A DNA stretch of 64,000 nt, taken from the IMG/VR virus record IMGVR_UViG_3300048587_000983; one strand, 5' to 3'. This document shows, one piece after another, positions 6,785-54,731 of this stretch; within the stretch, counting starts at the first letter, position 1, and every line of letters starts with the position of its first letter. A model generated the notes under the pieces. That model searched no databases, was not told where the DNA came from, and saw only the letters and a list, made by a program, of their open reading frames with translations. This DNA is from a virus. A program made the position numbers and the translations under genes.

Positions 6785-6795
6785 AGGACACACTA

Positions 6796-30593: not shown

Positions 30594-30657
30594 TTCGCGG
30601 ATTTCCCCTTGTGTCTGTCCGCTAAAAACTCCACCAAAAAGCTTATTCCCAGAATTT

Positions 30658-31011
30658 TCAGCCGATTCGCATGCCCGCCTCCAGCTCCCACGGATAGATA
30701 AGCCGGATTTTCTGCTCGCAGCTGTCACAGCGGGAGGGCCGTTCCTCGATGGGAAGGGGCATGGTATCGCAGTCCTCGAAAAAATAGTTTTTGCAGACCG
30801 GGCAGTCGGCGCCCCAGGCCGAATGCTGGTGGCCTTTTCCGAAGAGGGGCTCGGCCACCACAATCCGCTCCTTTTCGGGATCGGGCTCGGTCTTTTTCGG
30901 CCTCGGCCTATAAAGGTAGCGGATGACCTCGCTGAACGTCCCAAGGCCGGCATCGTCCTTGGCGAGCAAAAGAAGGCGGAGGGCTTCGTCGTCGATAAGA
31001 ATTTCATGCAT
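30658..31011 (-). CDS. ribbon-helix-helix-like domain plus zinc ribbon
   Basis: EILIDDEALRLL..AK....TFSEVIRYL (RHH antitoxin-like) and CPVC..CDSC. Confidence 0.55.
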   Translation of the reverse strand: MHEILIDDEALRLLLLAKDDAGLGTFSEVIRYLYRPRPKKTEPDPEKERIVVAEPLFGKGHQHSAWGADCPVCKNYFFEDCDTMPLPIEERPSRCDSCEQKIRLIYPWELEAGMRIG

Positions 31012-33074: not shown

Positions 33075-33362
33075 ATGAGTTACCACGACGATCTGCCGGT
33101 TCCGTTTGGTTATGAGGTGCCTCAGTTCGTCAAACAGCTTCTTGAAAACTTTGACGTCTGTCTTTTTCAGATGCGCCTCGATCCGGATCCCGATGCGCAT
33201 CTCAGCATCATCCGAAACCTTTACGTCCACGACCTCATTGTCTCGGCAATTGTTGCCCTCAACATGCCGAAGGAAAAGGAGGCCCTCGTAAAGGAGCTCT
33301 CCCAGCAGCTTGAAATTTTATCGGCGCTCACAAACCCTATCGAGGAGGACCTGAAGAACTAA
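33075..33362 (+). CDS. hypothetical protein
   Basis: 95-aa ORF, SD AAGGA, convergent with terminase. Confidence 0.6.
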   Translation: MSYHDDLPVPFGYEVPQFVKQLLENFDVCLFQMRLDPDPDAHLSIIRNLYVHDLIVSAIVALNMPKEKEALVKELSQQLEILSALTNPIEEDLKN

Positions 33363-36300: not shown

Positions 36301-36376
36301 CGTCCGATCCCAGCTCTTCCTCGAGATCGATGTCGTCACCGATCCGCTTGTCACCGTTGTCACCGATTGTTCCCAT
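33359..36376 (-). CDS. terL: terminase large subunit (lambda GpA-like) precursor containing an intein; 611 aa after splicing
   Basis: P-loop KTARQVEK/TT, Walker B LCLDEIQD, AGTPK, VPCPHCG zinc ribbon, nuclease AGVDWG and DDYFHS. Confidence 0.92.
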   Translation of the reverse strand: MGTIGDNGDKRIGDDIDLEEELGSDAFEARMYDDKPPAVSERTVAAFRSTVNQDGTLREILKAKKSDFVRNLIYLDGHKFDFTGRGYLRPIYDGNFKRILLKTARQVEKCQTGTSLVLTRYGEEKAIRDLRPGDEIVALGENGRQTADRVIAAEFNGAKPCLRIRTRLGSTVEVTHNHPLRMLLGWRQAADLRPGDRIASLRTQGFFLEAEDPTAALLGLMIGDGSMTENCQRFTAKNPVVQDWFESLYGPCEFSIDPRSGTRNYYISKKSQIYQYFQETGIFGKRASEKTIPSKAMQLGPDSTVQLLRGLWATDGHCKNVTSSKIDLVFCTTSKTLARQVRLLLRRFGIVTTVRENRPSTGGQLAYILRVVTRDSIEAFYNKIGPIPGKPFSLPGTASNSNLDTLPSEVYDLVELARRRGGNYWKRTGLQSQGLRINRSYAPTFGKIRKINETLCDPDLADVLAADIIWDQIESIEDIGVQDTWGIETETHTYVSDFLVQHNTTFLANNLTVTSVVIPYNKALYVSPSHTQTRQFSNEKLRPAIERSPLIARYFQDSSVSTQVFEKGFTNGSYIFLRSAFRSADRTRGISARVLCLDEIQDFLTTEIPVIMECTSHFPDASNLMAGTPKSHDNPIEIYWQSTTQAEWLVPCPHCGKWNFLDEENIGPTEWYQTKRLPPGPICKKCHKPIDPSTGRWVEFYPNNMIKGFRVPQLMVPWICGLYDQWMKLLWKRDNYPYGQLANEVLGLSYDSASKPITRDEIIEACGDYSLWNLTTPEGIRAAQAEAKKWGLTAGVDWGEGNDGSEKSPSGKIRNASYTVLTIGAYVSQKHWKVFYAKRYEGREVDPDFVVKDITRICQLLGVKLIGADWGHGWGVNNVLMRTFGPNRVAQFQYMPKLKQRMKWDAIGYRYQLQRNFIMSELFFDMKHGLILFPRWKDFEPFAKDILGIYAEYNEYRREIKYDHRPSDPDDYFHSMNYAKLMSDIMTGKSRRYTLDAVALDGPQA
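34868..36049 (-). mobile_element. intein with LAGLIDADG homing endonuclease (394 aa)
   Basis: Starts Cys (CQTGTSLV), ends VQHN before Thr+1; LAGLIDADG-like LLGLMIGDGS and LLRGLWATDG; interrupts Walker A. Confidence 0.93.
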
Positions 36377-37736: not shown

Positions 37737-38060
37737 CTAGGTGTGCGCTTTGCGGAATAGCTGTTCGAGCAGAGTTGCGCCGTCTCTCCCCCCAGCCAGA
37801 CGCTCGACCTCGCGCCCGTTTTTCAAAAGCACGATCGTCGGAAACGTCGTCACATGATGTTTCTGCGGCCTGAGAGGGTCTCGCTTCACCTCGACAAGGC
37901 GAACCTTTACGCTCGGATATTTACGGGAAAGGCGTCGAACATTGCCGCGGGCCGTCTCGCTCTCGCTCTCGCCGCTATCCCAAAAAAGCATTATGACGTG
38001 CTTTTTGAACTCGACCGGAGCCGCGGTTTTCCGCTCGAAGCCTTTCCAAAAGTAGCGCAT
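37737..38060 (-). CDS. thioredoxin-fold protein lacking CxxC, with FWxGFE leader
   Basis: MRYFWKGFERKTA; VIMLFW(DSGESES), VTTFPTIVLLKNGREVERLAG. Confidence 0.8.
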   Translation of the reverse strand: MRYFWKGFERKTAAPVEFKKHVIMLFWDSGESESETARGNVRRLSRKYPSVKVRLVEVKRDPLRPQKHHVTTFPTIVLLKNGREVERLAGGRDGATLLEQLFRKAHT

Positions 38061-40844: not shown

Positions 40845-42139
40845 TATTTCGATACCTTGACTGTGGTGGAAAACGGGACGAGCGGTGACCCTGTGAACGC
40901 GTTGATGGTTGACGGGTAGGTCAGCACGTTTTCAGTCGCGCCGGTACCTCCATCAAGCTCGATGGTGCCAAGTGCCTTTAGCTTGACGGGAGCTTTTGCC
41001 TCAAGGTTTACAGGCCCCAGCGACTGCACGTCGATCCCCGCCTTGGCGTCGATCTTCACCTTCTGAAGGGCAGTGAAGCTCATCTCGCCAGCATTGGAAA
41101 TCTTAACGGTGCCACCCGGCGCCGAGATCTCAAAATCCCCGGTGGCCAACGCATTGACCTTCACCAGTGGATTTGAGACCTCGATATCCCCGCTCTCCGT
41201 CAGCGACAGTTTGGATGTCGGATTCTTGACCTCCAAAGCCCCAGTCGCACTCAGATTGATTGTAATCAGACTATTTACGGCTACTTTAGCCGCACCTGTG
41301 GGAGAAATATCAAGCTCAAAATTTGGGATGGGACCGGACTTGAAGTTGTAGCTGCCGTCGGGGGAAATTTTTGTTCGTATCCCAATCGGTGTGCCGACGG
41401 GGGAGGGTGGGGATATTTGAAGCTCGTACACGCCGAGGTTTGAGATCGTTTCGGTGAAGCTCGGAAGTTGAACTCCCAGAACGCCAGGCACAGCAGGCCC
41501 TACCTGCCTCTTCCAGACGGTGGTGAGGTCAACCCCGCCGCGATCCTCAGTCATGATGAAGGTTCTAAGGAGGTCCCGTCGATACTCGGCCTTATGCACA
41601 GTGAGCTGGGTGATGGGATCTGATCCCCAGTCGATAGTCCCGCCGTCAGTCCTCAGTTGGTAGCGCCGGCAAAGATCGAAAATTGCCGAGCCTTTCGGGA
41701 TCATGGTCCGTCTTAATGTGTCGCTGCTTACGATCTCAATCGCCCCGTTCGATTTCACCGTAATTTTGTTGCCGGCAACGGTGGAGATGACCTTGTCACC
41801 CTCGATAAGCTTTGCTGGTTCATCGCCTGTGACCGTCGCAGCGTTTCGGGAGAGAGGCTTAAAAAAGCCAAAAATAAAAGGTTCGCCATCGACGTAAAAA
41901 ACAAGCCCTATCGAATTTTTGCGAGGTATTGAGGTGGACTCATCGCCTTCCGGATTACTATCTAGGTTGACCCACTGGCATCGAGGGATGTAATTATCAT
42001 TAAGACTACCCTTACCCAGAAATGTGACAACCGTGCAGTAGCGCTCCTTCGCAAAGACTTCGGTAATTCGTCCGAAGGCAAAACCGAAGGCCTGCTCCTC
42101 GCGGGTGGGATGCTCGCGCTCGTATATTGAAGCGTCCAT
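40844..42139 (-). CDS. Gp5/gpV/VgrG-like baseplate central spike protein
   Basis: N-terminal OB-fold pattern (FGRITEV...W......G.ES.IP...GLV) and C-terminal beta-helix repeats (I.IS.TG...V). Confidence 0.75.
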   Translation of the reverse strand: MDASIYEREHPTREEQAFGFAFGRITEVFAKERYCTVVTFLGKGSLNDNYIPRCQWVNLDSNPEGDESTSIPRKNSIGLVFYVDGEPFIFGFFKPLSRNAATVTGDEPAKLIEGDKVISTVAGNKITVKSNGAIEIVSSDTLRRTMIPKGSAIFDLCRRYQLRTDGGTIDWGSDPITQLTVHKAEYRRDLLRTFIMTEDRGGVDLTTVWKRQVGPAVPGVLGVQLPSFTETISNLGVYELQISPPSPVGTPIGIRTKISPDGSYNFKSGPIPNFELDISPTGAAKVAVNSLITINLSATGALEVKNPTSKLSLTESGDIEVSNPLVKVNALATGDFEISAPGGTVKISNAGEMSFTALQKVKIDAKAGIDVQSLGPVNLEAKAPVKLKALGTIELDGGTGATENVLTYPSTINAFTGSPLVPFSTTVKVSK

Positions 42140-42213
42140 TCCGGCATTTCTCCGTGCATTCTCATGGGGTTTCTGGTCAGTCCCGAGTATATAGCCTTAG
42201 GAGCCATTTGCCG

Positions 42214-42768
42214 ATGTCATTTCAAAAAACGATTTTATGCGGCGAGATCATCACCGACCCCGAGCTCAGATGGAACCAGGCGGGCGTCGCCTGCTGTGCG
42301 TTTCGCTTGAAGACGGCGGAGAGCTGGATCGGTCCGGACGGCAGCGTGCGCGAGGACGAAGAGAGGCATCGCGTGCTCGTGTGGGGAAAAGACGCAGAGC
42401 GCATCTCAAAGGATTTCAAAAAAGGCCACCTCGTAGTCGTCGAAGGTCGGAACAAAACAAGGGCCTGGAAGAGCGAGAACGGGGTCACGATCGACATCAC
42501 GGAGGTGGTGGCCGTACCTAACGGCGTAAGGTTTTGCGGAGGAGCCGCCCTCGCCGAAAGTCGCCCCGCACGACCCGAGGCTTTCCCGGCTCCTCGACAG
42601 GATCCGCCTCCTGAGAGCGCCAAACAACCGTCCCCGGCAGCTCCCGAGGCTGCGGTAAAAGAAGAAAAGCCTTCCGCTCCCAAAAAGAAGACTCCAATCA
42701 AAGCCGCCGCCCCCAAGCCCGACAAGGTTCCCGTGGACCTCGCCGTCGCAGACGATTTACCCTTCTGA
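42214..42768 (+). CDS. ssb: single-stranded DNA-binding protein
   Basis: L.GEI..DPELR, HRVLVWGK.AE, KGHLVVVEGR..TR.W, acidic tail DDLPF. Confidence 0.95.
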   Translation: MSFQKTILCGEIITDPELRWNQAGVACCAFRLKTAESWIGPDGSVREDEERHRVLVWGKDAERISKDFKKGHLVVVEGRNKTRAWKSENGVTIDITEVVAVPNGVRFCGGAALAESRPARPEAFPAPRQDPPPESAKQPSPAAPEAAVKEEKPSAPKKKTPIKAAAPKPDKVPVDLAVADDLPF

Positions 42769-42855: not shown

Positions 42856-43179
42856 ATGAATTTGAGTGAGTTGACAGACCGAGTGGCCGCAGCTAGCGGA
42901 GCCAGCAAGGCTCAAACACGCGAGATAATCAAAACAACATTCGACGCCATGCAGCTTGAGGTCGCCAAGGGTGGCCGGGTTTGCATCGTCGGCTTTGGAA
43001 GTTTTTACCCCTTCGCCCGAAAAGAACGGGTGGGGCGTAACCCCCAGACGGGAGAAGAGGTAAAAATCCCGGCAGGCCCCGTGCCACGCTTTAAGCCGGG
43101 CAAGGAGTTCAAGGATACGATGGCCAAGGAGAGTCCGGCAAAAGCGCAGCGTCGCAAGGCCAACCGTAAAAAAGATTGA
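42856..43179 (+). CDS. hup: HU family DNA-binding protein with basic tail
   Basis: GFGSF...RKERVGRNPQTGEEVKIPA..VPRFKPGK. Confidence 0.95.
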   Translation: MNLSELTDRVAAASGASKAQTREIIKTTFDAMQLEVAKGGRVCIVGFGSFYPFARKERVGRNPQTGEEVKIPAGPVPRFKPGKEFKDTMAKESPAKAQRRKANRKKD

Positions 43180-43296: not shown

Positions 43297-43479
43297 ATGA
43301 ACGGTCTGACGACTGGCCTCCCTATTTTTCTGCGGCGCTTTCTTTGCCGCTTTCTCCCTCATTCCGACAGAAGGCTGGGCCCGGATCGAAACGAGCTGTG
43401 GGCAGACGGCGATCTGTCCCCCAGCACGGAAGTCTGCATCTGCAGGCGGTGTCTCAGAGTGAAGCGGAAACCTGCCTAG
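43297..43479 (+). CDS. small Cys-containing protein
   Basis: SD AAGGAGG; CICRRC. Confidence 0.55.
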   Translation: MNGLTTGLPIFLRRFLCRFLPHSDRRLGPDRNELWADGDLSPSTEVCICRRCLRVKRKPA

Positions 43480-43661
43480 CCCCTTCTTTTTTCAAAGCCT
43501 CGCCAGAAAGCTTTTTTCTCTTCGTGATCTTCATGGAGACCGACCTTGGCTTCGAGCTTTTGCTCTTTCGGGCTTTCCGCAGCTTCCTGCTCCTTTGATT
43601 CCCGCCGCTCATGGCTCAGAAGGAGCGCTTTCAGATCTTTCTTCGACACATCGTCTCTCAT
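43476..43661 (-). CDS. small charged protein with C-terminal FWxGFEKR motif
   Basis: ATGA overlap with the SNF2 stop; ends AFWRGFEKRRG. Confidence 0.65.
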   Translation of the reverse strand: MRDDVSKKDLKALLLSHERRESKEQEAAESPKEQKLEAKVGLHEDHEEKKAFWRGFEKRRG

Positions 43662-45088
43662 GGCTTTTCGCTTCCTTTTTCACGGAGAATATTCAAAAAC
43701 TGGTCGTTCAGAGCATCCTTTTGCGCCGAGAGCATGTCGAGGTACTCATCCACACCAGAGTCCGCTTTCCTGCGTAAAACTCTCTGCAGGAAGGTTTTTG
43801 GAACGGTCGAATGGAACTTCTGAACATGGACATTCCTCTCTTCCGGCGGAAGGTGCTCATGGCTTTTAAAGCGGACGCCCCGGCCCTCAGCCTGCTCCAG
43901 CCGTGAGGTGTTCCAGTGCGGTTCCAAAAGCTGCATCAATTTTGTGCCTTTGAGGTCCAGGCCTTGAGCGCCTGCGCCAGAGATGAGGAGGGCCTTTGCT
44001 CGTCCGGCATTATAATCCTCCACCGCTTGCTTTCGTTTCGCATCAGAGAGTGTCCCGTCAAATACAGCGTGTGGAACACCAAGATTGGCAAGATGTCGCG
44101 CATATTCCTTCACTCCGGAATCGAGGTAGTTTGAGTAGACGACCGCCTTGAAGTTAGGGTCTTTTTGCATACGTTTTTGGAACTCGTCGATCGCCCGCTG
44201 AATTTTTGGAGAAGTCTCCGTTCCCCCAAACCCTCTCGTGCTATTTGATATTTGCCGCGGTCCGGAAAGGAAGGAATTGAGCGACTTGCTCTCCTGTTTG
44301 TTTGGCGGCAAGCCTCGACGAATCTTATAACGAAGCCCAGGACCTGCCTTGTCGAGGACGAAGTCGTAATATTTCATCTGCTCGGCATTCATCGGGACCT
44401 GGATCGTCTCGCGGCTCACAGCGGGAAAGTTCTCCCGCGCCGGCGCGTGATAGTCCACATAGCCCTTCACGAGATCAGCGAAGCGCTCGGGGTTTTTGAT
44501 TTTGTACTCGACCCCTGGTTTTGCCCCATGAAAGATTCGGGCCAGGAGTCCGGGGCTTTTCATGACCTCTGCTATGAAGGCCTTGTCGAAGGCCTTGGGG
44601 TCGGACGGTATTTTCGTATCGCCACGCACCATGGCCATAAGAGGGCCGATCTCGTGCGGGTAGTTGCGGATAGGAGTGCCTGTGAGAAGAATCCGCTTGT
44701 CGTAATCGCGCGCCTTTTGAATCATCTCCTGAGTCCGCTTGCTGTCGGTGCGACCGAGCATGTGGGCCTCATCGACCACAAGAGCGTGGCCCGTAGGTGG
44801 CGTCTTCACGGCCTTTTCGTAGCTCATGATGTTCGGCTTGTGGCCAGTCGTATGCTTTTGTACCTCTTTCGCATAGTTCTGACGAAGAGCCGCTGGTACA
44901 ACGACATCGGTTTCGTCACCTTGCGTCGCGGCCAGGGAGGTGAGCGTCTTGCCGCTTCCAAGGCCGTGATAGACAAGAACGCCCGGCTTTTTACCGAGCC
45001 TTTGCTGAACGCGGATCTGCTGCGGCTCCAGCTTGGTTGTGGTTTTTAGTTTGGCTCTCTTCTCAAAACCCAGCCAGAAGCTGTGCAT
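43658..45088 (-). CDS. SNF2/SWI2-like superfamily 2 helicase/translocase with FWxGFEK leader (476 aa)
   Basis: HGLGSGKT, VVDEAH, LTGTP, GAQGLDL, EPHWN..EQAEGRGVR; SD GGAGGAG before ATG 45088. Confidence 0.92.
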   Translation of the reverse strand: MHSFWLGFEKRAKLKTTTKLEPQQIRVQQRLGKKPGVLVYHGLGSGKTLTSLAATQGDETDVVVPAALRQNYAKEVQKHTTGHKPNIMSYEKAVKTPPTGHALVVDEAHMLGRTDSKRTQEMIQKARDYDKRILLTGTPIRNYPHEIGPLMAMVRGDTKIPSDPKAFDKAFIAEVMKSPGLLARIFHGAKPGVEYKIKNPERFADLVKGYVDYHAPARENFPAVSRETIQVPMNAEQMKYYDFVLDKAGPGLRYKIRRGLPPNKQESKSLNSFLSGPRQISNSTRGFGGTETSPKIQRAIDEFQKRMQKDPNFKAVVYSNYLDSGVKEYARHLANLGVPHAVFDGTLSDAKRKQAVEDYNAGRAKALLISGAGAQGLDLKGTKLMQLLEPHWNTSRLEQAEGRGVRFKSHEHLPPEERNVHVQKFHSTVPKTFLQRVLRRKADSGVDEYLDMLSAQKDALNDQFLNILREKGSEKP

Positions 45089-45110
45089 TACCGTTTCTCC
45101 TCCGGAAGAT

Positions 45111-45491
45111 TCAAATGGTGCCAAGCATAAGCTCTTCGTCTTCGCCCGTTCGCGCAAGATAGCGGAGGTATTCCTTCTGTTCTTTTGGAGGCATGGCGAG
45201 AACTCTTTTGGCTTCCTCGATACCCCGCTTCTGGGCGATCGCCCTAAGGACCCCGGCCAGCCCGCCGACAGCCAAGCCGGCCGCACCTCCGGCAAAAGCC
45301 CCAGGGACAGCGCGGTCCGCGGCACCGAAAAGAGCCCCCGTAACCCCGCCTAAACCAGCTCCGACGAGACCTCCTTTTAGTTTCGACAGCGGTTTTTTCT
45401 GCGCTGATTCTTCGAGCTCTTTTTTAAGAACACGAGCCTCGTAATCGTAGTCGTAAGCCCGCTTTTCAAAGCCGTTCCAAAATGCATGCAT
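45111..45491 (-). CDS. glycine-zipper membrane protein with FWxGFEK leader
   Basis: MHAFWNGFEKRA; GGLVGAGLGGVTGALFG and GAFAGGAAGLAVGGLAG; TGATG coupling to the RNAP gene. Confidence 0.8.
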   Translation of the reverse strand: MHAFWNGFEKRAYDYDYEARVLKKELEESAQKKPLSKLKGGLVGAGLGGVTGALFGAADRAVPGAFAGGAAGLAVGGLAGVLRAIAQKRGIEEAKRVLAMPPKEQKEYLRYLARTGEDEELMLGTI

Positions 45492-48400
45492 CAGTATTTC
45501 CCTTCCTTGCCTTTGCCAAACTCCGCTCCGTAGGCGAACGCCGGGATCGGATGGTAGTCACTCGTATTCGTGCTCCAGCCTTGCGAGGCCCCGGTCGTCA
45601 GCGCGCGCTGCAGCTGCTGATAGCCGAGAGCAGCCATCCAGTCTTTTCTCAAAAGAGGCAGATTGCGCACGGATTTGAGAAGTGGCGCATGAACTATGGG
45701 ATCCTTTTGAATCTTAACCGTTTTCACCGTGGCCGAAAGCCGGGAGATGTCCTCAGGGGTCATCTCGTGCCCCGCGCGAAGGCCTCCGGCAGACTCGGCG
45801 AGCTTAAAGCCGAGGCTCTCTTCGATCGGCACGTCCTGGGCGAGGTTTTTGTTGTGGTGCTGGGCCACCGTATAGGGGATCACATCCCCCGGAAGATAAC
45901 CCGTCCCTTTGGGAGCGTTCTGCACCTGGGTCGTATTGCCCATGGACCGCACAACGGTCTCAAAAATCTTTTTGTGGAGATTGACCCCCTGGCCCTCGTA
46001 GCTCTTTTTGAGCTCGGTGGCGAGGTAGTCCTGGGCGGCGTCCATCCCGAGGTGTTTCACGAGATCCTGGGGCTTGATAGGCCCCTCAGAAAGCGGCTCA
46101 CCACGCCTGACCTGCGAGCCCACCTGCACGCGAAGAGGTTTGCCCTGAGGAACATGCGCCTTTGTGTCTTTACCGATCGTCACGACAAAGCCGCCACCAA
46201 GACCCTTTTCGATCTTTGTCACCCGGCCATCGACCGGGGCAAGTGGCGCAGCGCCTGCGACCTGCTTTGGCATCTGAAGAAGCTGATCGATCCGGGCGTA
46301 GCCCTGAACGTCGGCCCCTGTGCCGGCAGCCCCGCCCGTGTGGAAAGTTCGCATCACCATCTGCACCAGCGGCTCACTTATCGTCTGGCCTGCCTTGGCA
46401 CCGATGTTCTCGCCTATCTCAGGCATGTGACCGTGCTCGTCGAGGCCATAGCACTTCGCGCATGTGCCTTTTGGGGCAAGACAGCGAAGTGGCGAGCGGA
46501 CCTTGATGCTTGAAAGACCGCGTTTTTTCAGCTCGTTGACCACCTTCGTGTCAACCAGGGTATTGTGAGAAAAGCCGCCCTGATCGCCCGCGAGGAAGCG
46601 GTCGTAGACATCGGTGTCCTCGATCTTGTGAGCGACCCCTTCTTTCGTTCCGCAGTCCTCTTTTGATATGACGTTTCCGATTGTGGTCGCCATGATGTCT
46701 TTTGAAAAGGCCCCGGGCAGCGAGGTCTGGATCGCCCTATCCATCATGCCTCGACGAGCCCCGTACATGCTGATCCAGTAATCGCCGACGTCCAGGCCTT
46801 CGGCGTAGGATTTTTTTATTGGGGTCGGGATAATGCGGCCCTTTTCGTCGCTCATAAAAAGAGGGGTCGCCACGATCTGCCTGAGCTGGCTTGAGTTGCC
46901 GCGCGCCCCTGAGCGGACCATATCGAAAAGCGGATTGTCTTTCCCTTCGAGCTTTTTCTCGATGACCTTGTCGATAAGGTTCGCCGCGCGCTTGTTGACG
47001 TCCATAAGCCGGGCCTGGTCGGTGGTCGCCGCAGCGGCTCTGGATGCACTCTCGACCACCCTGTCACGGATCGTCCCAAACTGCGCAATGTCTTCAAGAC
47101 CAAGTGTAAAGCCTCTTTCGTATGCGTGCTTTTCACCTTCGGCCTTGAGGTTGGCGACGATACTCGCATAGTCCTGCGGCGGCAGCTCTTTTGAAAGCTT
47201 CATGACAAGAGCCCCGGTCGCCTTTTTATCAAGGACACCCGTGACCTTATATTTCTCAGGCAGAAAGCGATTGAGGCTCTGGCGGCCAGCCGGCGTTTTT
47301 GAAAGGTAGAAAAGCCCAATCTGCGCCTCCTGGGAGGGCTGAATCATAAGCTTGCCCGACCCCGGCTGGAAGAGATTGCGCGAGGGCTTCAGCCGCTCGG
47401 CCTCTTTGTTGGCCTCATCTCCAATCGGCACGTGAACCGTCATCGTATCGCCGTCGAAGTCAGCATTGAATCCTTGAACGATAAGAGGCGGGATCTTGAT
47501 AGCCTTGCCGTCGGTGATCTTGGGCTTAAATGCCATGATCGAGAACTTATGCAGCGAAGGGGCTCTATTCAAAAGAACATGCCGCTGCTTCATGACATTA
47601 TCGAGTGCTCGGCGCGCAGTCTGCGTTTTCTTCTTGATGGCCTCTTTCGCGTCGAGGGGGTTCAGTCCGAAGTTGCGAAGCTCGCGCACGACGAAAGGTT
47701 CAAAGAGCGACCACGCCATAGGCTCGGGCATCGCCATTTCATCGACGCCAAGCGAGGGCTCAGGGATGATCGTCCCGCGGCCGACATAGTCCTGCTGCTT
47801 TGAGAGGAGCTTGCTGATAAAGAAGCCCTCTTTTGGCTGACCACCCGTGCCGCCCTTGATCTCGGCTATAAGGCCGTCCTTCGGCTTTCCTTTCATGGTC
47901 GTATTCGTAAGACCGACGACACCCTTCACGTGCTTATAAAGATCGGCGCGGACATCAGCCTTCGCATCCTCCGAAAGCAGGTCCATGACGGGAAGGTTCA
48001 TCACCGTGTTGACGACGCCCACGTTCTGATAAAGATCGTTCACGGGGGATGTCGCCACCTCGCCCGTTGGCAGTGGGTAGATGGGTCTATAGATGGGAGG
48101 CAGCACCGGAAGCTTTCTTCGGATGTAGGCCTCTTCAGGACGAAGACCTGTCTGCTTCAGCGCCGATAGGTAGCGAAGCTTTTTGTTCATGTCGTCAAGC
48201 TTCGAGCCAGTCGCATTCTGCGCTTTTCGCGTAAGGTTCTTAAGCTCCGCGTCGACGTCCATTTTCTTTAAAAGTGTTTCGATTCCCGCGCCGCCGGTGA
48301 CGCCCGTATGCTCGGTCGTGAGGCTGCCGTCAGGTTTAACGAAAAGCTTTCCTGCAACGATCTCGTCAAATTTCCCCGAGAGCCCGAGAAGTTTTCTCGC

Positions 48401-51400
48401 TGCCTCTTCAAACGCCGGGTTTACGACGGGCTCCTTCAGCTCAAGATGGCCCCACTTGGTTCCCTTGAGGCCGCCGAAGATCTTGCCATCGAAAAACCCG
48501 CCCTTGACGGGCTGAAAGTCCTTGGCGTGATAGAAGTGCGCCTTCTGCACGCCGCCGCTGCTCATCTTTTCGATCTGGGCGTCCGTGAGAGGGGCAAGCG
48601 TGAGTTTGGTCCCCTCCTTTTGGACATCGATGCCGGCCCCCTTCAGATAGGCCATGAATTTGTCGAATACAAACGGGGCCTTGGGCGGCGGCAGCTGCTG
48701 GCCGCTACGAAGTGCCTTCCAGTATTCGTCGTTGACGTTCGCTTTCAGCGAGCTCATCTCACGAAGGTTTGCCCGCGCCCCGTGGGAGAGGAGCGAATAC
48801 ATCGTCAGAAGGTCGAGCGATTTTGAGCCTTCCTCGCCGCCTGTTTTCAGGGGCTGAAGGTTACTGTCATACGGCATCCCAGGTCCGCCCTGGCGAACCG
48901 AGAAGTTGCCGGCCGATTGCTTGAAGAGCTTCAGGATGTATGGGTTTCCGACGTGCACCTGACCGAGGCTTTTGCCAGTCGAAGGATCAAAAAGTTCTTC
49001 CTTGTCAGACACCCCGTTTTCTTTAAGAAACTTTCGAGTTGTGCCAAGATAGTTTTGTCCTGTGAAGTTTTGAACCTTGTATGGAGCCCCAGCTTTGAGA
49101 GCCGCCTTGCCTGCAGCAGACTCGTAGATCTGACCAATGTTGATTCGTCCAATAACTCCGTGAGGATTGAGGAGGATATCGACAGCTCCGCCTCCAGCAT
49201 CCTTCGGCATCTGTCCATCGGGGAGGATTTTTGTGATGATGCCCTTGTTCCCCATGCGTCCCGAGAGCTTGTCGCCGATCTTTGCGCGCTCCTCGGTTCG
49301 TATGAAGACCGTGATCGTTCCCCCAACTTTAACCACTTCAGTGACAACGCCTTCGTCCTCGCCCGTCCAGCGAACGCTGGCATCCCGCGGTCTATCCGCG
49401 AGGGTTTTGGAGATAACCGCGATCTGAGCATCCCGATTCTTCCTCTCCATTGCTGCGATGATAATATCACCCGAGCGGACGCGCGAACCTTTTTTGATAA
49501 CGCCATCAGAACCAATTTTTGAGGCGTTGTCCGGACTCAGGAGCGCCGGGTAGTTCAGCCGGAAAAGCCCCTTGTCGAGAGTTGACTGGGGTGTTACCGC
49601 GTAGGATTTTTTGTGTATGTGCTCGCTCGTGAGCTTCTCAGCCGCAGACTCCGAGATTACAATCCCGTCCTCGAAGTTGTAGCCCTTGTAGGGAATATAT
49701 GCGGCGCGCAGGTTTGTGCCGAGCGCCAGCGTCCCGCCTTTTGTAAAATTGCTCTCCGCGAGGAGCTGATCCTTTTTCACCCGCTCCCCGACCTTGACCA
49801 CGGGCGTATGATGGAGAAAGCTTTTCCGGTTGAGCGAGAAGTTATTATAGAGGCTAATCTTCCGATCACCTCCAGCCGTCGTAAGAACGATCTCGTCCTC
49901 GCCAACCTTTTTTACAGTGCCTTCTTCAGGGGCACGAATCGCCACCTGGCGCCCGACGACCTCCTCCATGGATTGGCCGGTTGAAGTTCCGACTTGAACA
50001 AGCGGCGCCTCCCGGTGCTTAAGGCCGATGGCCTGCTCCAGCATTTTCGAGGCCATCATCGCCCGGTTCCCCTGGTTTGAGGGAAGAAAGGGGACAAGGT
50101 TTGTCGATGGAGAGAAAAGGGCCTCGGCGGTTGGCGTGAAGTAATCCACCTTGGAGACGGGCACCATAACGATCTGCCCGCGGTAGAGGGCCTTGACCGT
50201 ATCGCCCTTTTGCCCCGGAAAAGCCACGTACTTCTCCCAGCTTTCAATTGGCGTGAGAGCCTCAGGCTGCCCCGTCTTTGCATTTTTCAGGATGGCCTTA
50301 AGATTCTTGCCGTCCTTGATCACGCCCATTGGAAGGTGGAGGTTGACGCCTATTCGTTCTGATTCAGGCGTGTGGACGGGGTCTATGAAACCGTAATGCG
50401 AAGGGTGGACCTGCCGCATCTCGTCTTTGATTGCATGGCGCGATGTGATCCCGCCCGAACCCATGAAAGTCGCCTTGTGTCCGCCGGATAGCATCTCAAG
50501 GGGATTTGTCTGCTCGGGCGTTGCCGCCTTGTCGTCCTGCGTGAAAAACCCCTCGACCGTAGACGAGAACGCGGCCGGGTTTACGAGCTGGCTTATCTTC
50601 ACACGGCGCGGGTTATCGACCTGTCTTCGGATCTTGCGCTCCAGCTCTGTGCGGTTCTTTTCAAGACGCTCGGCTATGAAATCCTCCACGCTATGGATTT
50701 CTTTAAACGCGAGGGAGTCCCTGTCCACGGGTTCTTTTTTTCCAAGCTGCACATCAAGAAGGTTTTTGGACGCGGCCAAGAGCATTGGCCCATCGACCCT
50801 CTCAAACGAAGTCCCAAGCACCAGTTTCGTCGTATCCGCCGGCAGAGACGTTTTTCCAAAATACTCTCTGAGACCATCTTTTTTAACCCCGAACGCGGTT
50901 TCAGCACGCTGCACCGCTTTCGGATCAGTATTTTTGTTGGCCGCCTCTAGTTTGGAACCCCAGGTTTGAGCCATGAGTACAGGAGAGACGCCGAGATGAG
51001 TAAGAATAGGATAAAGAGGAATATTCGTCTGACCCCCGCCGATTTTCTGGATGGTGAAGACACCACTCCTCTCATCAAACGCGAGGTCAAAGTTCCTTCC
51101 TCGTGCCAGGTTAACTTGGGTTTTGAGTTGTCCATTTTGCTTCCTTATCGTGTAGACGCCAGAGCGCAGGCGAAGCTGGTTGTTCACCTGATACTCGTTG
51201 CCGGCGACGATATACGACGAGCGCGCCGTTGCCGTTGGAAGAAGAAAGAGCCTCACTTTCTCCGCGCGGTCAATCACTTTTCCTGTCGAATTTTCGACGA
51301 GTGACAGCGAGGCGTACACAGGAACCCCCCATGTCCCCTCACGAAGCTTTGTCTTTGCCTGGCCGGAAAAGTCGTCCGGAGCGGCTTTGTCGTCGGTCCA

Positions 51401-51517
51401 GACGTTATCAAGCTTCATCGTGCGGATTCGCCCAGTCACCGGAAAAATCGATCGGACGGCATTTACCGCAGCACTCTTCACCGATTCAGTTTGCTGTTTG
51501 GCGTCAAAATTTCGCAT
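45491..51517 (-). CDS. rpoBC: single-chain two-barrel RNA polymerase (fused beta-beta'), 2008 aa
   Basis: beta motifs HPSHYG.IDP..TPE, GYNFEDG, GDKLSGRMGNKG, NPHG..GRINIGQ; beta' motifs LLNRAPSLH, FNADFDGD (47447-47467), bridge helix GARRG, CAKCYG, trigger loop MRTFH.GG; no stop between the halves. Confidence 0.97.
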   Translation of the reverse strand: MRNFDAKQQTESVKSAAVNAVRSIFPVTGRIRTMKLDNVWTDDKAAPDDFSGQAKTKLREGTWGVPVYASLSLVENSTGKVIDRAEKVRLFLLPTATARSSYIVAGNEYQVNNQLRLRSGVYTIRKQNGQLKTQVNLARGRNFDLAFDERSGVFTIQKIGGGQTNIPLYPILTHLGVSPVLMAQTWGSKLEAANKNTDPKAVQRAETAFGVKKDGLREYFGKTSLPADTTKLVLGTSFERVDGPMLLAASKNLLDVQLGKKEPVDRDSLAFKEIHSVEDFIAERLEKNRTELERKIRRQVDNPRRVKISQLVNPAAFSSTVEGFFTQDDKAATPEQTNPLEMLSGGHKATFMGSGGITSRHAIKDEMRQVHPSHYGFIDPVHTPESERIGVNLHLPMGVIKDGKNLKAILKNAKTGQPEALTPIESWEKYVAFPGQKGDTVKALYRGQIVMVPVSKVDYFTPTAEALFSPSTNLVPFLPSNQGNRAMMASKMLEQAIGLKHREAPLVQVGTSTGQSMEEVVGRQVAIRAPEEGTVKKVGEDEIVLTTAGGDRKISLYNNFSLNRKSFLHHTPVVKVGERVKKDQLLAESNFTKGGTLALGTNLRAAYIPYKGYNFEDGIVISESAAEKLTSEHIHKKSYAVTPQSTLDKGLFRLNYPALLSPDNASKIGSDGVIKKGSRVRSGDIIIAAMERKNRDAQIAVISKTLADRPRDASVRWTGEDEGVVTEVVKVGGTITVFIRTEERAKIGDKLSGRMGNKGIITKILPDGQMPKDAGGGAVDILLNPHGVIGRINIGQIYESAAGKAALKAGAPYKVQNFTGQNYLGTTRKFLKENGVSDKEELFDPSTGKSLGQVHVGNPYILKLFKQSAGNFSVRQGGPGMPYDSNLQPLKTGGEEGSKSLDLLTMYSLLSHGARANLREMSSLKANVNDEYWKALRSGQQLPPPKAPFVFDKFMAYLKGAGIDVQKEGTKLTLAPLTDAQIEKMSSGGVQKAHFYHAKDFQPVKGGFFDGKIFGGLKGTKWGHLELKEPVVNPAFEEAARKLLGLSGKFDEIVAGKLFVKPDGSLTTEHTGVTGGAGIETLLKKMDVDAELKNLTRKAQNATGSKLDDMNKKLRYLSALKQTGLRPEEAYIRRKLPVLPPIYRPIYPLPTGEVATSPVNDLYQNVGVVNTVMNLPVMDLLSEDAKADVRADLYKHVKGVVGLTNTTMKGKPKDGLIAEIKGGTGGQPKEGFFISKLLSKQQDYVGRGTIIPEPSLGVDEMAMPEPMAWSLFEPFVVRELRNFGLNPLDAKEAIKKKTQTARRALDNVMKQRHVLLNRAPSLHKFSIMAFKPKITDGKAIKIPPLIVQGFNADFDGDTMTVHVPIGDEANKEAERLKPSRNLFQPGSGKLMIQPSQEAQIGLFYLSKTPAGRQSLNRFLPEKYKVTGVLDKKATGALVMKLSKELPPQDYASIVANLKAEGEKHAYERGFTLGLEDIAQFGTIRDRVVESASRAAAATTDQARLMDVNKRAANLIDKVIEKKLEGKDNPLFDMVRSGARGNSSQLRQIVATPLFMSDEKGRIIPTPIKKSYAEGLDVGDYWISMYGARRGMMDRAIQTSLPGAFSKDIMATTIGNVISKEDCGTKEGVAHKIEDTDVYDRFLAGDQGGFSHNTLVDTKVVNELKKRGLSSIKVRSPLRCLAPKGTCAKCYGLDEHGHMPEIGENIGAKAGQTISEPLVQMVMRTFHTGGAAGTGADVQGYARIDQLLQMPKQVAGAAPLAPVDGRVTKIEKGLGGGFVVTIGKDTKAHVPQGKPLRVQVGSQVRRGEPLSEGPIKPQDLVKHLGMDAAQDYLATELKKSYEGQGVNLHKKIFETVVRSMGNTTQVQNAPKGTGYLPGDVIPYTVAQHHNKNLAQDVPIEESLGFKLAESAGGLRAGHEMTPEDISRLSATVKTVKIQKDPIVHAPLLKSVRNLPLLRKDWMAALGYQQLQRALTTGASQGWSTNTSDYHPIPAFAYGAEFGKGKEGKY

Positions 51518-51668
51518 AGAAGTTGATATAAGCCTCCTGGCGGAGCGTTTAACTTTTCACTTTGAAAGGGGTTCTATAGACAAACTAGAGTAGTTTTCGT
51601 GAAAAATCACCTTTTCTTTCCGATGAGTTGTTTCTGAATGAACTGGCTTTACACAAGGAAGGCAAGCC

Positions 51669-52199
51669 ATGTCGATTAACGCTGAATTTGAAGCTGAAGT
51701 TTCGTCTGACCACGATAGTCCTTTTTCAAAAGCGCCCGGTGGAAACCCTTTCGGGGGTTTTGCGGGAGAGACGGGTGGAAACCCATTCCGCGATTCCCCC
51801 GGGGCGCAGCAGCGGAAATCGCCAAGCGGCGGATCGAAGCCGAACTTTGTGGTACGCGCGTGGCGAGTTGTGAAGGACTTCTTCGTCGGTATCGGAAGGG
51901 CTGTATTTTCACGACAGTTCTGGGTTGATTTTATAGCAACAGCGCTCCGTGATGCGCTTGCCGCTCTTGGGTATTCGATCGGCATGCGAATGGTCAAGAA
52001 AGCTGCGGCGACCGGTGACATCATCTTCCGTGACAAGAGCGGAATGGTGTCAGAGACTGAAGCAGCTGCGCAGGGTACGGCGTATGCGAGCCAGCAGTCC
52101 TGGCCGCCAAGAGCAAGGCCATCAGGTGGTTCCGTCCAGGACAATCTCATGGCTTACCCCGCTGACAGGCCGTACGCACAACGGTCGTTTGTAAACTGA
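51669..52199 (+). CDS. hypothetical protein with GGNPF repeats and amphipathic/hydrophobic helices
   Basis: 176-aa ORF divergent from the RNAP gene, SD AAGGAAGG. Confidence 0.65.
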   Translation: MSINAEFEAEVSSDHDSPFSKAPGGNPFGGFAGETGGNPFRDSPGAQQRKSPSGGSKPNFVVRAWRVVKDFFVGIGRAVFSRQFWVDFIATALRDALAALGYSIGMRMVKKAAATGDIIFRDKSGMVSETEAAAQGTAYASQQSWPPRARPSGGSVQDNLMAYPADRPYAQRSFVN

Positions 52200-52216
52200 G
52201 AAGGTTTGCGCATCGG

Positions 52217-52240
52217 TGCGCCCTGGGATCCCAGGGCGCA
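52217..52240. terminator. 24-bp perfect palindrome between convergent genes (probable bidirectional terminator)
   Basis: TGCGCCCTGGGATCCCAGGGCGCA followed by TTCTCATTTTTTT on +. Confidence 0.7.
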
Positions 52241-52264
52241 TTCTCATTTTTTTAGCTATGCCCA

Positions 52265-52507
52265 TCAGTAGTTCCGCGGGCCGCCGCCCGCTTGAACAGG
52301 CTTCACCTCAGGCGAATCGGTAAGCTTTCCGAGTCCGTAAAGACCGCCTCCAGCAGCGATGGTGCCAAGCGCCGCCTTCTGCTTGAGTTTAAAAAGAGGA
52401 CTTTTGCTCGTTCGCTTGTACCAGTGAAGAGGCATCATAAGGCCCTCAGCCATGCCCGCAGCGAGCTTTTCCTCAAACGCTTTCAGAGCAATGTTCTTTC
52501 CTGCCAT
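52265..52507 (-). CDS. small putative virion protein with hydrophobic Gly-rich segment
   Basis: AFEEKLAA near N-terminus; AALGTIAAGGGLYGLG. Confidence 0.65.
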   Translation of the reverse strand: MAGKNIALKAFEEKLAAGMAEGLMMPLHWYKRTSKSPLFKLKQKAALGTIAAGGGLYGLGKLTDSPEVKPVQAGGGPRNY

Positions 52508-52701
52508 GTCACCACCAGCTCCAAGTGATCCTGAATCGAGGTGATGCGCCCTGTGTCCGGGTCCATCTCCCGATTCGATATTTTTTCCTTGATGCGGTCG
52601 AGGATCTGCGCGTTTGGGTTATTCAGGATCGCCTCGTACTCTGCGCAGTCCTCTTTGTCATTGAGGTTGAACCGCTTTACAAATTTTCTTGTCGTATACA
52701 T
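52483..52701 (-). CDS. hypothetical protein
   Basis: 72-aa ORF, TAATG coupling to the portal gene. Confidence 0.65.
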   Translation of the reverse strand: MYTTRKFVKRFNLNDKEDCAEYEAILNNPNAQILDRIKEKISNREMDPDTGRITSIQDHLELVVTWQERTLL

Positions 52702-54731
52702 TAAACCGCTCCCTGCCGCCGCGGAACCTTCTGCTCAGGCAAAGGGTCCATGCCTACGCCGCCACCACTGGGCGCTGGCGTGGGAGAGCCTGCACCACCT
52801 TGCATCGGCGCGGCTTCGCCCGAGCCCTCAGCGCGCAGCTGATTGAGACGGGTTTCGATACGCTGACCAACCTCGGGCATTTTTTGTTTCACCTCGGAGA
52901 GCGTAAGGGCGGCTTCACCGGGCGAAAGGCTCATCAACTGGCGAGCCCAGGAATCGACTTTCGAGTCGATTTGCTGACCAAGAGCCTTGTCTTCCTTGCC
53001 GCCGGCAGCCGCTCCACCTGCTGTGCCCGGCAGGCCTTGAGCCGTAGCAGCGCCGGGTGCGCCCCCTCCAGCTCCGCCTCCAGGGCCGGCAGGTCCGCCT
53101 GCAGAGGGGTCACCGCCGCCGGGTGCATTTGGATCAGTTGGCTGATCGAGGGGACCAGGAATCCCAAGCCTCTGAGCCCGCTCCTGTGCAGCCACCTGGG
53201 CCTTCTCGGAAAGCTCCTGAAGTGTCTGCTGATAATTAAACTGAATGAGCGAGGCCTCACCCTGCGAGCGTGCACCTGATTTGCTTTGTAGATCCATGAT
53301 GTAGTTCTGGACATGCTGCTCTTCGATAAGTTTTTTGGTTTCCGACTCGTAGTCGTAGCCGAGTTCTGTGAGAAGAGTTTGGTCGCTGATCTTCCGCTGA
53401 GCGTTAAGCCCGATGAGCTGCTGATTCCTTTGAATATCGTCAGCCATACGAAAGTCGGAGAACCGGATATCCTTTACGTCAGAGAGGTTGAGCCATGTGC
53501 GCAGCTTGTCTTTCAGCCAAAGAGTAAAATCAAGAAGCTGGCTTCTATTCTGGATAAAGTCGTTCTCGAGCGTCCGAAGCGAAACGCTCGACCCTGTCCA
53601 GTTGAGACCACCAAAGAGGAACTCCTGCGGAAGCCCGAGCCCACCGACAACTGTCTGCGTGATGTAGTTGATTTCAGGCGCGAGGAGGAGCGCTTTTCCG
53701 TCACCACCAAGTCGCCCAAAGCCAATCGGGATAGGGATAACACCTTTGAAGTTGGGATCGCGGCGGTGCTTTGTGATGACGTTTTCAACCTGCTGCCGCC
53801 AGCTGGCAAGGTCCGTATGAATGTAGGGGTCCTGCTGCGCGTTTGGAAGCGGGTAGATCATATCGAAGGGGACGATATGCTCCATCGCAATCGCTTCCTG
53901 CGCACGCCTGAGGGTATAGAGGTAATACATATCCTTCAGGACGTGGATGATTGCAGGCTTGCCCCAGCCCTGGTCCTGCTCAGCCAGTGTCGGAGCTTTC
54001 AGGTGTTTGATGTTATCTGAGTTGAAGCGAATCATCCGGCGGTTTTTAAGAGCTTCAAGGACGATGATGGGAATGTCCTCGATGATGTCCTTGTCGCCGC
54101 GAAGGATGGCATTACGAAGCTTTCCGGGCACCGAGTACATATAGATGTAGCGGCCCGTATATTCGTTGAACTTGATGTGGATATTTTCAGGGTTCCAGCG
54201 GACTATCCGGATCCCTTTTCTACTTCGATAAGGGACGTCTTTTACGGTCACCTGCCCCGTGTGGTTGCAGCGTGAACAGGTCCCCGAGAACTGATAGTCG
54301 GCCCCGCGAAACGTCCAGTCCCATTGGCGAATAGGCTGGCTGTTGCGACATTCCTTACAGACGAGAAACCGCGTGAAAGGGAAGTGGATACTGACGAACG
54401 CGTTGCCGTAAGTATGGTAGTCGAGGTTAATCTCCATGAGCTTGTCTTTGATGAAAAGCTCTTTGTTGAGAATCTTGTCCCAGACGTTACGGTTGCTCTC
54501 CTGGTCGTCCTCGATGATAAGGTCTGTGATCGGGTACCGCGAAACCTTCTTCATCGCAGCCCCGATGAGGGGGCTGTTGTAGTAGTAGTAGGTGCACCAG
54601 CGGAAAAGCTCCTTGATCGTCGGCGGCATGTACTGCTGCGCGAGGTCAAAGAACTGGTTTGGATACCGCTGGCCCCTCATGTCTCCGAGGGCAAGCGAGG
54701 GCTCGGCCAGGCGTTCCTGTGGGTTGGTCAT
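52701..54731 (-). CDS. portal protein (putative) with zinc-ribbon insertion and Gly/Pro-rich tail
   Basis: Y.NSPLIG, YHTYGNAF, GLPQEFLFGG, ISDQTLL.ELG; CKEC..CSRC insertion; structural module context. Confidence 0.75.
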   Translation of the reverse strand: MTNPQERLAEPSLALGDMRGQRYPNQFFDLAQQYMPPTIKELFRWCTYYYYNSPLIGAAMKKVSRYPITDLIIEDDQESNRNVWDKILNKELFIKDKLMEINLDYHTYGNAFVSIHFPFTRFLVCKECRNSQPIRQWDWTFRGADYQFSGTCSRCNHTGQVTVKDVPYRSRKGIRIVRWNPENIHIKFNEYTGRYIYMYSVPGKLRNAILRGDKDIIEDIPIIVLEALKNRRMIRFNSDNIKHLKAPTLAEQDQGWGKPAIIHVLKDMYYLYTLRRAQEAIAMEHIVPFDMIYPLPNAQQDPYIHTDLASWRQQVENVITKHRRDPNFKGVIPIPIGFGRLGGDGKALLLAPEINYITQTVVGGLGLPQEFLFGGLNWTGSSVSLRTLENDFIQNRSQLLDFTLWLKDKLRTWLNLSDVKDIRFSDFRMADDIQRNQQLIGLNAQRKISDQTLLTELGYDYESETKKLIEEQHVQNYIMDLQSKSGARSQGEASLIQFNYQQTLQELSEKAQVAAQERAQRLGIPGPLDQPTDPNAPGGGDPSAGGPAGPGGGAGGGAPGAATAQGLPGTAGGAAAGGKEDKALGQQIDSKVDSWARQLMSLSPGEAALTLSEVKQKMPEVGQRIETRLNQLRAEGSGEAAPMQGGAGSPTPAPSGGGVGMDPLPEQKVPRRQGAV

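Follow-up and report, generated by a model that had tools for sequence, protein, structure and literature searches.

To our knowledge, multisubunit RNA polymerases (RNAPs) packaged in virions have been reported only for phiKZ-like jumbo phages, in which the enzyme comes in five pieces and has no known ATPase partner. Here we describe a cassette of four genes at 43476-51517, on the minus strand of a 64,000-nucleotide stretch of viral DNA (IMG/VR record IMGVR_UViG_3300048587_000983; the window). It encodes an RNAP, an SNF2-family ATPase, and two small proteins, and all but the RNAP carry a short peptide, FWxGFEK (the leader, or tag). We propose that the RNAP and SNF2 are built into the phage particle and delivered with the DNA, and that the leader loads cargo of this kind. 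We put the chance that this whole reading is right at about even.

The phiKZ-like virion RNAPs (SPN3US and 201phi2-1) are multisubunit-type enzymes whose genes lie among those for the head and which are packaged and then ejected, and a short motif with Glu at its end marks the sites where phiKZ-like head proteins are cleaved (PMC5694885). These enzymes consist of five separate polypeptides without a known SNF2 partner, and the cleavage motif is A/S/G-x-E. The window RNAP differs in being a single chain of 2008 amino acids (aa) rather than the phiKZ-type set of four to five polypeptides. Tailed phages of the mReC Caudovirales clade have cellular-type beta and beta' homologues (Weinheimer and Aylward 2020, PMC7481178), as does the window. 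The mReC paper mentions no SNF2, helicases, virion packaging, or subunit fusion in the clade (PMC7481178). Poxviruses package a multisubunit RNAP with SNF2-like NPH-I and the small subunit of VETF, which act in initiation and termination. However, these are eukaryotic viruses, and their similarity to the window SNF2 is generic to the family, with CSB, ISWI, and Chd1 scoring better.

Among cultured phages, the closest are Salmonella phage Arash and Vibrio phages D69, D181, and D148, whose RNAPs are 33 to 34% identical to that of the window and which, like the window, have the portal, a small gene, the RNAP, and a gp218-like protein in that order. The Arash/D69/D181 group (PMC10585845) is similar to the window in its order of portal, RNAP, SNF2, and gp218, although D69 has no SNF2 at that place. 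Arash gp217, annotated as a DNA helicase, is 38% identical to the window SNF2 (E 9e-103) and directly follows the second RNAP gene, with overlapping stop and start codons. Arash differs in that its RNAP is split into two genes with insertions, its SNF2 is leaderless, and it has neither a Gly-zipper gene nor a 61-aa gene. The four genes of the window cassette are as follows.

45491-51517, minus strand: single-chain beta-beta' multisubunit-type RNAP, 2008 aa (Pfam Rpb2_6, Rpb1_2, and Rpb1_5)
45111-45491, minus strand: tagged Gly-zipper protein, 126 aa, with a YDY box, two Gly/Ala-rich segments, and a GIEEAKR...KEYLxYLAR tail
43658-45088, minus strand: minimal SNF2/SWI2 ATPase, 476 aa, with leader MHSFWLGFEKRA (Pfam SNF2-rel_dom, 3e-17; Helicase_C, 6e-14)
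43476-43661, minus strand: acidic/basic "spacer" peptide of 61 aa that ends in the tag (FWRGFEKR at 43485-43508), identified by spacer homology

RNAP and SNF2 in related phages

The RNAP matched Rpb2_6 (3.7e-56), Rpb1_2 (1.2e-28), and Rpb1_5 (1e-24) and contains NADFDGD. It is 58 to 62% identical to the RNAPs of G002, G004, L112, and L134, and 33 to 34% identical to Arash gp206/gp216 and to the RNAP of D69. The SNF2-rel_dom and Helicase_C matches of the ATPase both exceeded the Pfam cut-offs, and its GSGKT, DEAH, and QxxGRxxR motifs were invariant in an alignment of 41 sequences (A4). With motifs I, II, and VI on two RecA-like lobes and a fold that matches CSB, ISW1, and Chd1, it belongs to the SNF2/SWI2 group of superfamily 2 (SF2). 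An AlphaFold 2 (AF2) model had a predicted local distance difference test (pLDDT) score of 93.9, with ~49 for residues 1 to 10. Its top fold matches were CSB/Rad26, ISW1, Chd1, and Mot1 (E ~1e-21), and poxvirus ATPases came at ranks 40 to 49 of the Foldseek top 50. By sequence, ISWI (5e-8) scored better than NPH-I (3.2e-5), whose match covered the C-lobe only, so the window SNF2 is not closer to NPH-I/D6 than to other SNF2 proteins.

E. coli RapA (HepA) is likewise an SNF2-family ATPase that works with a bacterial-type RNAP, and the original prediction had likened the window SNF2 to it. The comparison found no support. RapA has N-terminal RNAP-binding domains, whereas the window protein is a bare core, starting around residue 19, with a 12-residue leader. 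Because only ~18 residues precede the ATPase core, such N-terminal domains are impossible here. Furthermore, no RapA chain was among the 13 PDB sequence matches or the top 50 Foldseek matches. We predict that the window SNF2 acts as a minimal translocase on double-stranded DNA.

A profile of SNF2 relatives retrieved 80 viral-contig loci, and a few loci already in our set brought the number to ~85. In 21 of these, the same strand also encoded an RNAP no more than 10 kb away. SNF2 abutted the RNAP end in L003, L004, L091, and L134, the last with an RNAP 62% and an SNF2 29% identical to those of the window. It came after part 1 of a divided RNAP in L086 and directly after it in L095 and L100 to L104, ahead of part 2 in L118, and between portal and RNAP in L067 and L125. 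RNAP parts were found on both sides of it in L095 and L101 to L104. Nine of the 10 large contigs with SNF2 far from RNAP have an RNAP elsewhere, and in all some 30 genomes encode both proteins. L112 (RNAP 60% identical) contains a parallel cassette, consisting of RNAP, a 233-aa tag-spacer-tag-Cys-rich protein, a tagged DUF5661 protein, and an SNF2 that begins ...FLAAFEKRA.

Conservation of gene order had been named beforehand as a test, and the outcome was divided. RNAP followed by SNF2 recurs (L112, L134, and the Arash group), but the four-gene order is not conserved in two of the four closest RNAP relatives that we found. Judged by these gene orders, the link between RNAP and SNF2 recurs without being obligatory, and the slot behind the RNAP is variable.

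Evidence that the pair is present in particles comes from the published Arash proteome. Mass spectrometry of virions gave the top count, 3516 spectra, to gp206 (RNAP). The second RNAP gene product, gp216, had 1210 spectra in the virion preparation, and the SNF2 homologue gp217 had 1148, with 100% coverage and 38 unique peptides. The portal and the major capsid protein had 877 and 1333, respectively (PMC10585845).

An SNF2 delivered by the virion might still be unrelated to the RNAP. It could be a stand-alone polyvalent module that translocates along the incoming DNA, for instance clearing it of host nucleoid or restriction proteins or assisting its entry, and its adjacency to RNAP would reflect a common head-cargo region. 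SNF2 ATPases of phages with portal and terminase are known from polyvalent proteins, which are predicted or shown to be packaged, and phage P1 DarB is an experimentally studied example (Iyer et al. 2017, PMC5512222). Orthologues of the window SNF2 in L063, L066, L069, L088, L093, and L096 are multi-domain proteins. The domains fused to such orthologues (InPase, LigD 3'-phosphoesterase, ATP-dependent ligase, NUDIX, and Zn-peptidase) are like those of packaged polyvalent proteins (PMC5512222), and the SNF2 core also lies within 860- to 900-aa head-tail module proteins in L014, L019, and L032. In addition, G001, an 84-kb record rated 100% complete, encodes a tagged SNF2 that is 60% identical to that of the window but no detected RNAP; the gene follows a tail-tube-like gene and sits among further tagged genes, including one for a NUDIX hydrolase. 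However, the window SNF2 has one domain and no methylase partner, in which it differs from DarB and the polyvalent proteins. A stand-alone role also makes it hard to explain why SNF2 repeatedly abuts RNAP exactly, including between two RNAP parts in several lineages, or why Arash gp217 and gp216 have nearly equal spectral counts. We consider this alternative somewhat unlikely.

Two of the related RNAPs contain an in-frame insertion of ~470 to 500 aa at residue ~1360 (L054 12016-13422, minus strand, in G004; L134, ~6541-8036). The G004 insertion is a LAGLIDADG intein. The insertion point is near the two-gene split of Arash-like RNAPs (~residue 1420), and SNF2 or other genes are inserted near the same point in other lineages. 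The beta' region around residues ~1360 to 1420 looks like an insertion hotspot.

The FWxGFEK leader and the phage head

FWxGFEK had been noticed on all three genes downstream of the RNAP, and we found it on each of them. In a six-frame translation of the window, FW.GFE[KR] occurred five times, compared to 0.0016 expected, and it never occurred in 300 shuffles. Four copies begin three residues past a start codon (9670 on the plus strand; 38060, 45088, and 45491 on the minus strand). The fifth is the C terminus of the 61-aa open reading frame (ORF), which reads ...KKAFWRGFEKRRG*. The N-terminal copies belong to the following features.

45456-45491, minus strand: leader of the Gly-zipper protein, residues 1-12, MHAFWNGFEKRA (motif search and alignment A1)
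45053-45088, minus strand: leader of SNF2, residues 1-12, MHSFWLGFEKRA (motif search; disordered in the model)
37737-38060, minus strand: tagged thioredoxin-like protein outside the cassette, MRYFWKGFERKT (NCBIfam thioredoxin, 2.8e-6, under the cut-off; homologue in G004)
9670-10083, plus strand: tagged 137-aa protein outside the cassette, MRSFWDGFEKKA (homologues 50 to 78% identical in L038, L012, L020, L028, and L040)

The copies differ at synonymous sites. Therefore, the peptide is conserved and under selection and not the DNA, which argues against a DNA repeat or recombination scar. The family of the 137-aa protein (9670-10083, with members in L038, L012, L020, and L028) also has a repeated ...LDYGAM... 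box after the leader.

We scanned viral contigs for ATG-N6-FWxGFEK, with positions +7 and +8 left free. This gave 37 loci, many holding two to six tagged genes. Viral and metagenome contigs together provided ~60 different proteins with the tag (median length, 114 aa), and the leader-bearing relatives are from metagenomes of sediment and wastewater. The start Met was three residues ahead of the F in 40 of these 60, position +7 was R, Q, or K in 51, and +8 was Ala in 57, which gave the consensus M-x-[AS]-F-W-x-G-F-E-K-[RQ]-A. The sequence after the leader was enriched in Gly, Ala, Lys, and Arg. Tagged cargo included SNF2, NUDIX, thioredoxin-like, DUF5661, WYL-linked, and Gly-zipper modules. Many SNF2 relatives begin with a degenerate leader right before the core (for example, AFVDELEKIA or FLIGFNKQA).

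The tag was also present at junctions of fused ORFs, such as WYL-tag-Gly-zipper (L005 and P0013), SNF2-tag-next module (L029), and tag-spacer-tag-Gly-zipper (P0004 and P0005). The simplest reading is that these junctional tags arose by fusion of neighboring tagged genes. They do not mark every junction, since leader-like motifs occurred at domain junctions in only 2 of 13 large SNF2 fusions.

The motif had been taken as a signature of the cassette, but many phages use it as an N-terminal leader, three RNAP-less ones with complete genomes among them. The partner of the tag therefore cannot be the phage RNAP, and an RNAP-binding peptide is ruled out. We conclude that phages place FWxGFEK, as a flexible leader of general use, at the N termini of small cargo proteins that are otherwise unrelated. 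The string GFEKRA was in no paper of our literature search.

A known parallel is the capsid targeting sequence of phage T4 (IPI to IPIII and Alt). This too is a short N-terminal peptide (~10 residues) common to unrelated proteins. It ends near a Glu, and its cargo proteins are encoded in clusters and are mostly small and basic. However, the two peptides have no sequence similarity, and FWxGFEK is additionally seen inside fused proteins, at their junctions, and in one case at a C terminus.

A link to the head came from the core of the leader, [FLIMWV]EKxA (ΦEKxA). This core occurs 10 times in Arash gp218 to gp223, the block between SNF2 and the capsid gene. Counted with gp218 doubled, the run scored 12 compared to 0.37 expected, and none of 500 shuffles reached 12. 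The core was absent from 88 other Arash ORFs (gp1 to gp83 and gp226 to gp234). The same enrichment was seen in the Arash-like L003 (12 compared to 0.73 expected) and in D69, and the sites are conserved in position between Arash and D69 orthologues that are only 34% identical. The window has a homologue of gp218, p689. Since the core is confined to head-block proteins in Arash, the leader appears to be a head-loading or processing signal. Most likely, it directs head loading, processing there, or both. The short motifs at which T4 and phiKZ-type prohead proteases cleave look similar to ΦEKxA, and a leader that is recognized as the head assembles would fit, but the motif could equally be a binding site.

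A slightly longer form, hydrophobic-E-K-x-A-[AS], occurs one to four times per protein in gp218 and gp220 to gp223 (Arash OQ632216 142729-148976, L048; D69, L001 17755-22475; and L003) and nowhere else in the part of the genome that was sampled. The Arash paper does not mention the hydrophobic-E-K-x-A motif (PMC10585845), which is a candidate maturation-cleavage or docking motif of the Arash clade. We rejected p289/gp219, which adjoins TerL, as the protease, because it looks all-helical and has no catalytic pattern.

The same data can be read as if nothing were injected. The cassette would then be an intracellular transcription module of the late or middle phase, made up of a phage RNAP and a helicase-like accessory, and the peptide would have no connection with the capsid but be an amphipathic segment for docking or membrane targeting. 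The residues F, W, F, and A could indeed lie on the same side of a short helix, Gly/Ala-rich and basic sequences are common among the tagged proteins, and a Gly-zipper homologue follows a lysozyme gene in L009. The negative protease search and the contamination conceded by the Arash authors, both described below, would also fit. However, the genes lie between portal and head proteins in all relatives, the RNAP is the top-scoring protein of Arash particles, the leader core is confined to Arash gp218 to gp223, and tagged genes sit inside head-tail modules. We regard the absence of any injection as quite improbable.

Several points weigh against delivery of the pair in a leader-loaded particle. 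The particle evidence is from preparations of a relative, Arash, whose SNF2 is 38% identical, and not from the phage of the window. The Arash "virion" list has 116 proteins and includes ribonucleotide reductases, so carry-over is possible, and the authors concede that abundant enzymes may have been carried over from infected cells (PMC10585845). The alignment of gp217 to the window SNF2 starts at residue 19, and so gp217 is without a leader. As it was in the Arash preparation all the same, the leader is not needed there. The window RNAP bears no leader tag either. Unrelated genes follow the RNAP in G002 and G004 (RNAPs 58% and 61% identical), protein and Pfam searches of the complete G001 genome found no RNAP, and co-occurrence of RNAP and SNF2 at the genome level may be due to shared ancestry alone. 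Pfam and PHROGs searches detected no prohead protease in p228, p289, p431, p689, or Arash gp218 to gp225. An AF2 model of p689 was weak (pLDDT, 64.5; predicted template modeling score, 0.34) and had no fold match at E<=0.001.

Even so, we favor delivery of the RNAP and SNF2 by the particle. The four genes would form one late operon within the virion-morphogenesis region of an uncultured tailed phage, from a clade that encodes a bacterial-type beta/beta' RNAP. We infer that the RNAP and SNF2 would be packaged and enter the cell along with the DNA. The delivered RNAP would make the first transcripts without the host RNAP, and, at that same time, the SNF2 translocase would work on the entering genome. 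If the pair is delivered, SNF2 could be an accessory of the RNAP in initiation, termination, or release, as NPH-I/VETF are in poxviruses, or an independent "first-responder" effector of the polyvalent type. These two roles seem about equally probable.

A bolder version, which we offer tentatively and think possible rather than probable, has two parts. A large clade of tailed phages would deliver its bacterial-type RNAP, in one chain or two pieces, with a dedicated minimal SNF2 translocase that the enzyme needs for initiation or release, as a counterpart of the poxvirus system in viruses of prokaryotes. FWxGFEK(R/Q)A and its relatives, AFVDELEKIA for one, would also act as a movable address for the capsid and a processing label, by which many phages, with or without an RNAP, would load a shuffled set of SNF2, NUDIX, thioredoxin-like, WYL, DUF5661, and Gly-zipper cargo. 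The conserved RNAP-SNF2 pair would be in a widespread clade different from the phiKZ-like phages, with Arash as one cultured and proteomically characterized member. Two questions thereby become open to direct test, namely the way in which a minimal bacterial-type RNAP operates when host factors are absent and its possible need for a DNA translocase. The leader would allow phage-injected proteins, such as anti-defense enzymes and transcription factors, to be listed from sequence, and foreign proteins could be loaded into capsids by means of it.

The Gly-zipper protein and the 61-aa peptide

Pores can be built from Gly-zipper segments, and the original prediction made the 126-aa protein a membrane conduit. 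Its family has 275 representatives at E<=0.001, and the conserved features listed above are from alignment A1, with GIEEAKR...YLxxLAR as the more general form of the tail. The match to Pfam Gly-zipper_YMGG (PF13441; 2.4e-4) scored 21.2 bits, below the cut-off of 28.9, and three of eight homologues have a precomputed PF13441 match. The best 19-residue hydropathy was 1.6, which is borderline for a membrane helix. The ESM Atlas provided no lead (scores <=0.86; model pLDDT, 0.50). No relatives were found in an alignment search of viral contigs, and tblastn against cultured phages gave no match. Known homologues lie after the lysozyme gene in a tail module (L009) or are fused to WYL or DUF5661 modules. 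Among the RNAP relatives, it is only in the window that a Gly-zipper gene adjoins the RNAP.

These results bear on the full earlier version of the idea, in which the Gly-zipper conduit ejects the 222-kDa RNAP and the SNF2, and SNF2 recycles the RNAP as RapA does. Translational coupling of the Gly-zipper gene to the RNAP and the pore-forming capacity of such segments speak for it. However, the gene is missing from this position in L134, G002, G004, and Arash, and the family is mostly found away from RNAP and in varied fusions. Hydropathy and structure prediction were as poor as described above, and the SNF2 has neither the N-terminal domains of RapA nor any specific similarity to it. Nothing that we tested supports the conduit, and we consider this version very improbable. 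What stands of the injected transcription kit is an RNAP and an SNF2 that are evolutionarily linked in the virion-gene region, abundant in Arash preparations, and probably delivered by the virion. RapA-like recycling and the Gly-zipper conduit do not.

The fused proteins P0004 and P0005 have two tags each, and the stretch between these is 58% identical (E 1e-18) to the 61-aa ORF. By this match to the P0004 spacer, the ORF is a real, conserved module. It is also homologous to the N terminus of the 233-aa gene that follows the RNAP in L112, and a search of the protein database found only its own cluster. The Gly-zipper protein and the 61-aa peptide would be tagged cargo or leader modules in a variable slot rather than dedicated transcription parts.

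Cassette boundaries and phage context

When we reread 43476-51517, the minus strand contained four ORFs of 2008, 126, 476, and 61 aa, in the predicted order and with every predicted junction. The RNAP stop (TGA, 45493-45491) and the ATG of the 126-aa gene have their A in common (TGATG). The 126-aa gene ends with a stop at 45113-45111, and 22 nt separate it from the SNF2 ATG at 45088, which is the likely start; the GTG at 45325 in the ORF list is unlikely. The SNF2 stop overlaps the start of the 61-aa ORF (ATGA, 43661-43658). Tight junctions are common on this strand, with gaps of -34 to +22 nt at 10 of the 16 same-strand junctions within 33 to 62 kb. The coupling within the cassette is therefore nothing unusual. 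Even so, the opposite-strand genes on both sides set the cassette apart as a discrete unit. Signals and neighboring genes are as follows.

45097-45103, minus strand: ribosome-binding site GGAGGAG, inside the 22-nt gap ahead of the SNF2 start
51518-51668, minus strand: region upstream of the operon, common to the divergent plus-strand gene, with AGGAGG 13 nt ahead of the RNAP ATG
51669-52199, plus strand: 176-aa gene on the opposite strand, without a family match; upstream boundary, between the portal-side genes and RNAP
52215-52242, plus strand: T-rich terminator with a 12-bp stem, after the 176-aa gene
42127-42768, plus strand: SSB (Pfam SSB, 1.4e-20); downstream boundary
42856-43179, plus strand: HU-type DNA-binding protein (Pfam Bac_DNA_binding, 4.6e-28); downstream boundary
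33359-36376, minus strand: large terminase with a gpA-type ATPase domain and, ahead of that domain, an intein with LAGLIDADG
52701-54731: portal, 31% identical to Arash gp204

A promoter scan did not find an operon promoter. There was a sigma70-like match for the plus-strand gene at 51562-51591, but with the exception of the terminator at 52215-52242, promoter and terminator matches were no commoner than in shuffled sequence.

The large terminase and portal identify the 64-kb window as phage DNA. Its order is portal, small genes, RNAP, SNF2, the gp218-like protein, and terminase, and the terminase intein has Intein_splicing, LAGLIDADG_3, and Hint domains. The exact-sequence cluster of the 61-aa ORF (P0011) is recorded on 12 contigs, the longest of 180,819 bp. 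The phage genome is probably ~180 kb, and so the jumbo label first given to it probably does not apply in the strict sense. The Arash record is also 180,819 bp; this is presumably a coincidence, as Arash is only ~34% identical.

Some minor features of the surroundings are worth recording. Between portal and RNAP, an 80-aa gene (52265-52507, minus strand) with the N terminus ALKAFEEKLA encodes a Gly-rich segment and a KxPxxKLK box like those of the Gly-zipper protein. A tagged gene of 75 aa (SFIAGFEKRA) in the corresponding place of L134 shows weak similarity to it (E 0.003). A 437-aa protein (29694-31007, minus strand) has a HicA-toxin-like segment (Pfam, 1.3e-5, under the cut-off) and matches a PHROG annotated as toxin (1.1e-8). 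Sigma-70-like factors are encoded within structural modules of related contigs (for example, L009 13863-14594, plus strand), and Arash gp10 (sigma) is listed in the virion proteome (PMC10585845). A small opposite-strand gene comparable to the 176-aa gene is at the same spot in G002 and L134. The SSB and HU genes of the window lie within the structural region, and the pair, or SSB alone, is at the equivalent place in G002, G004, L061, L112, and L134.

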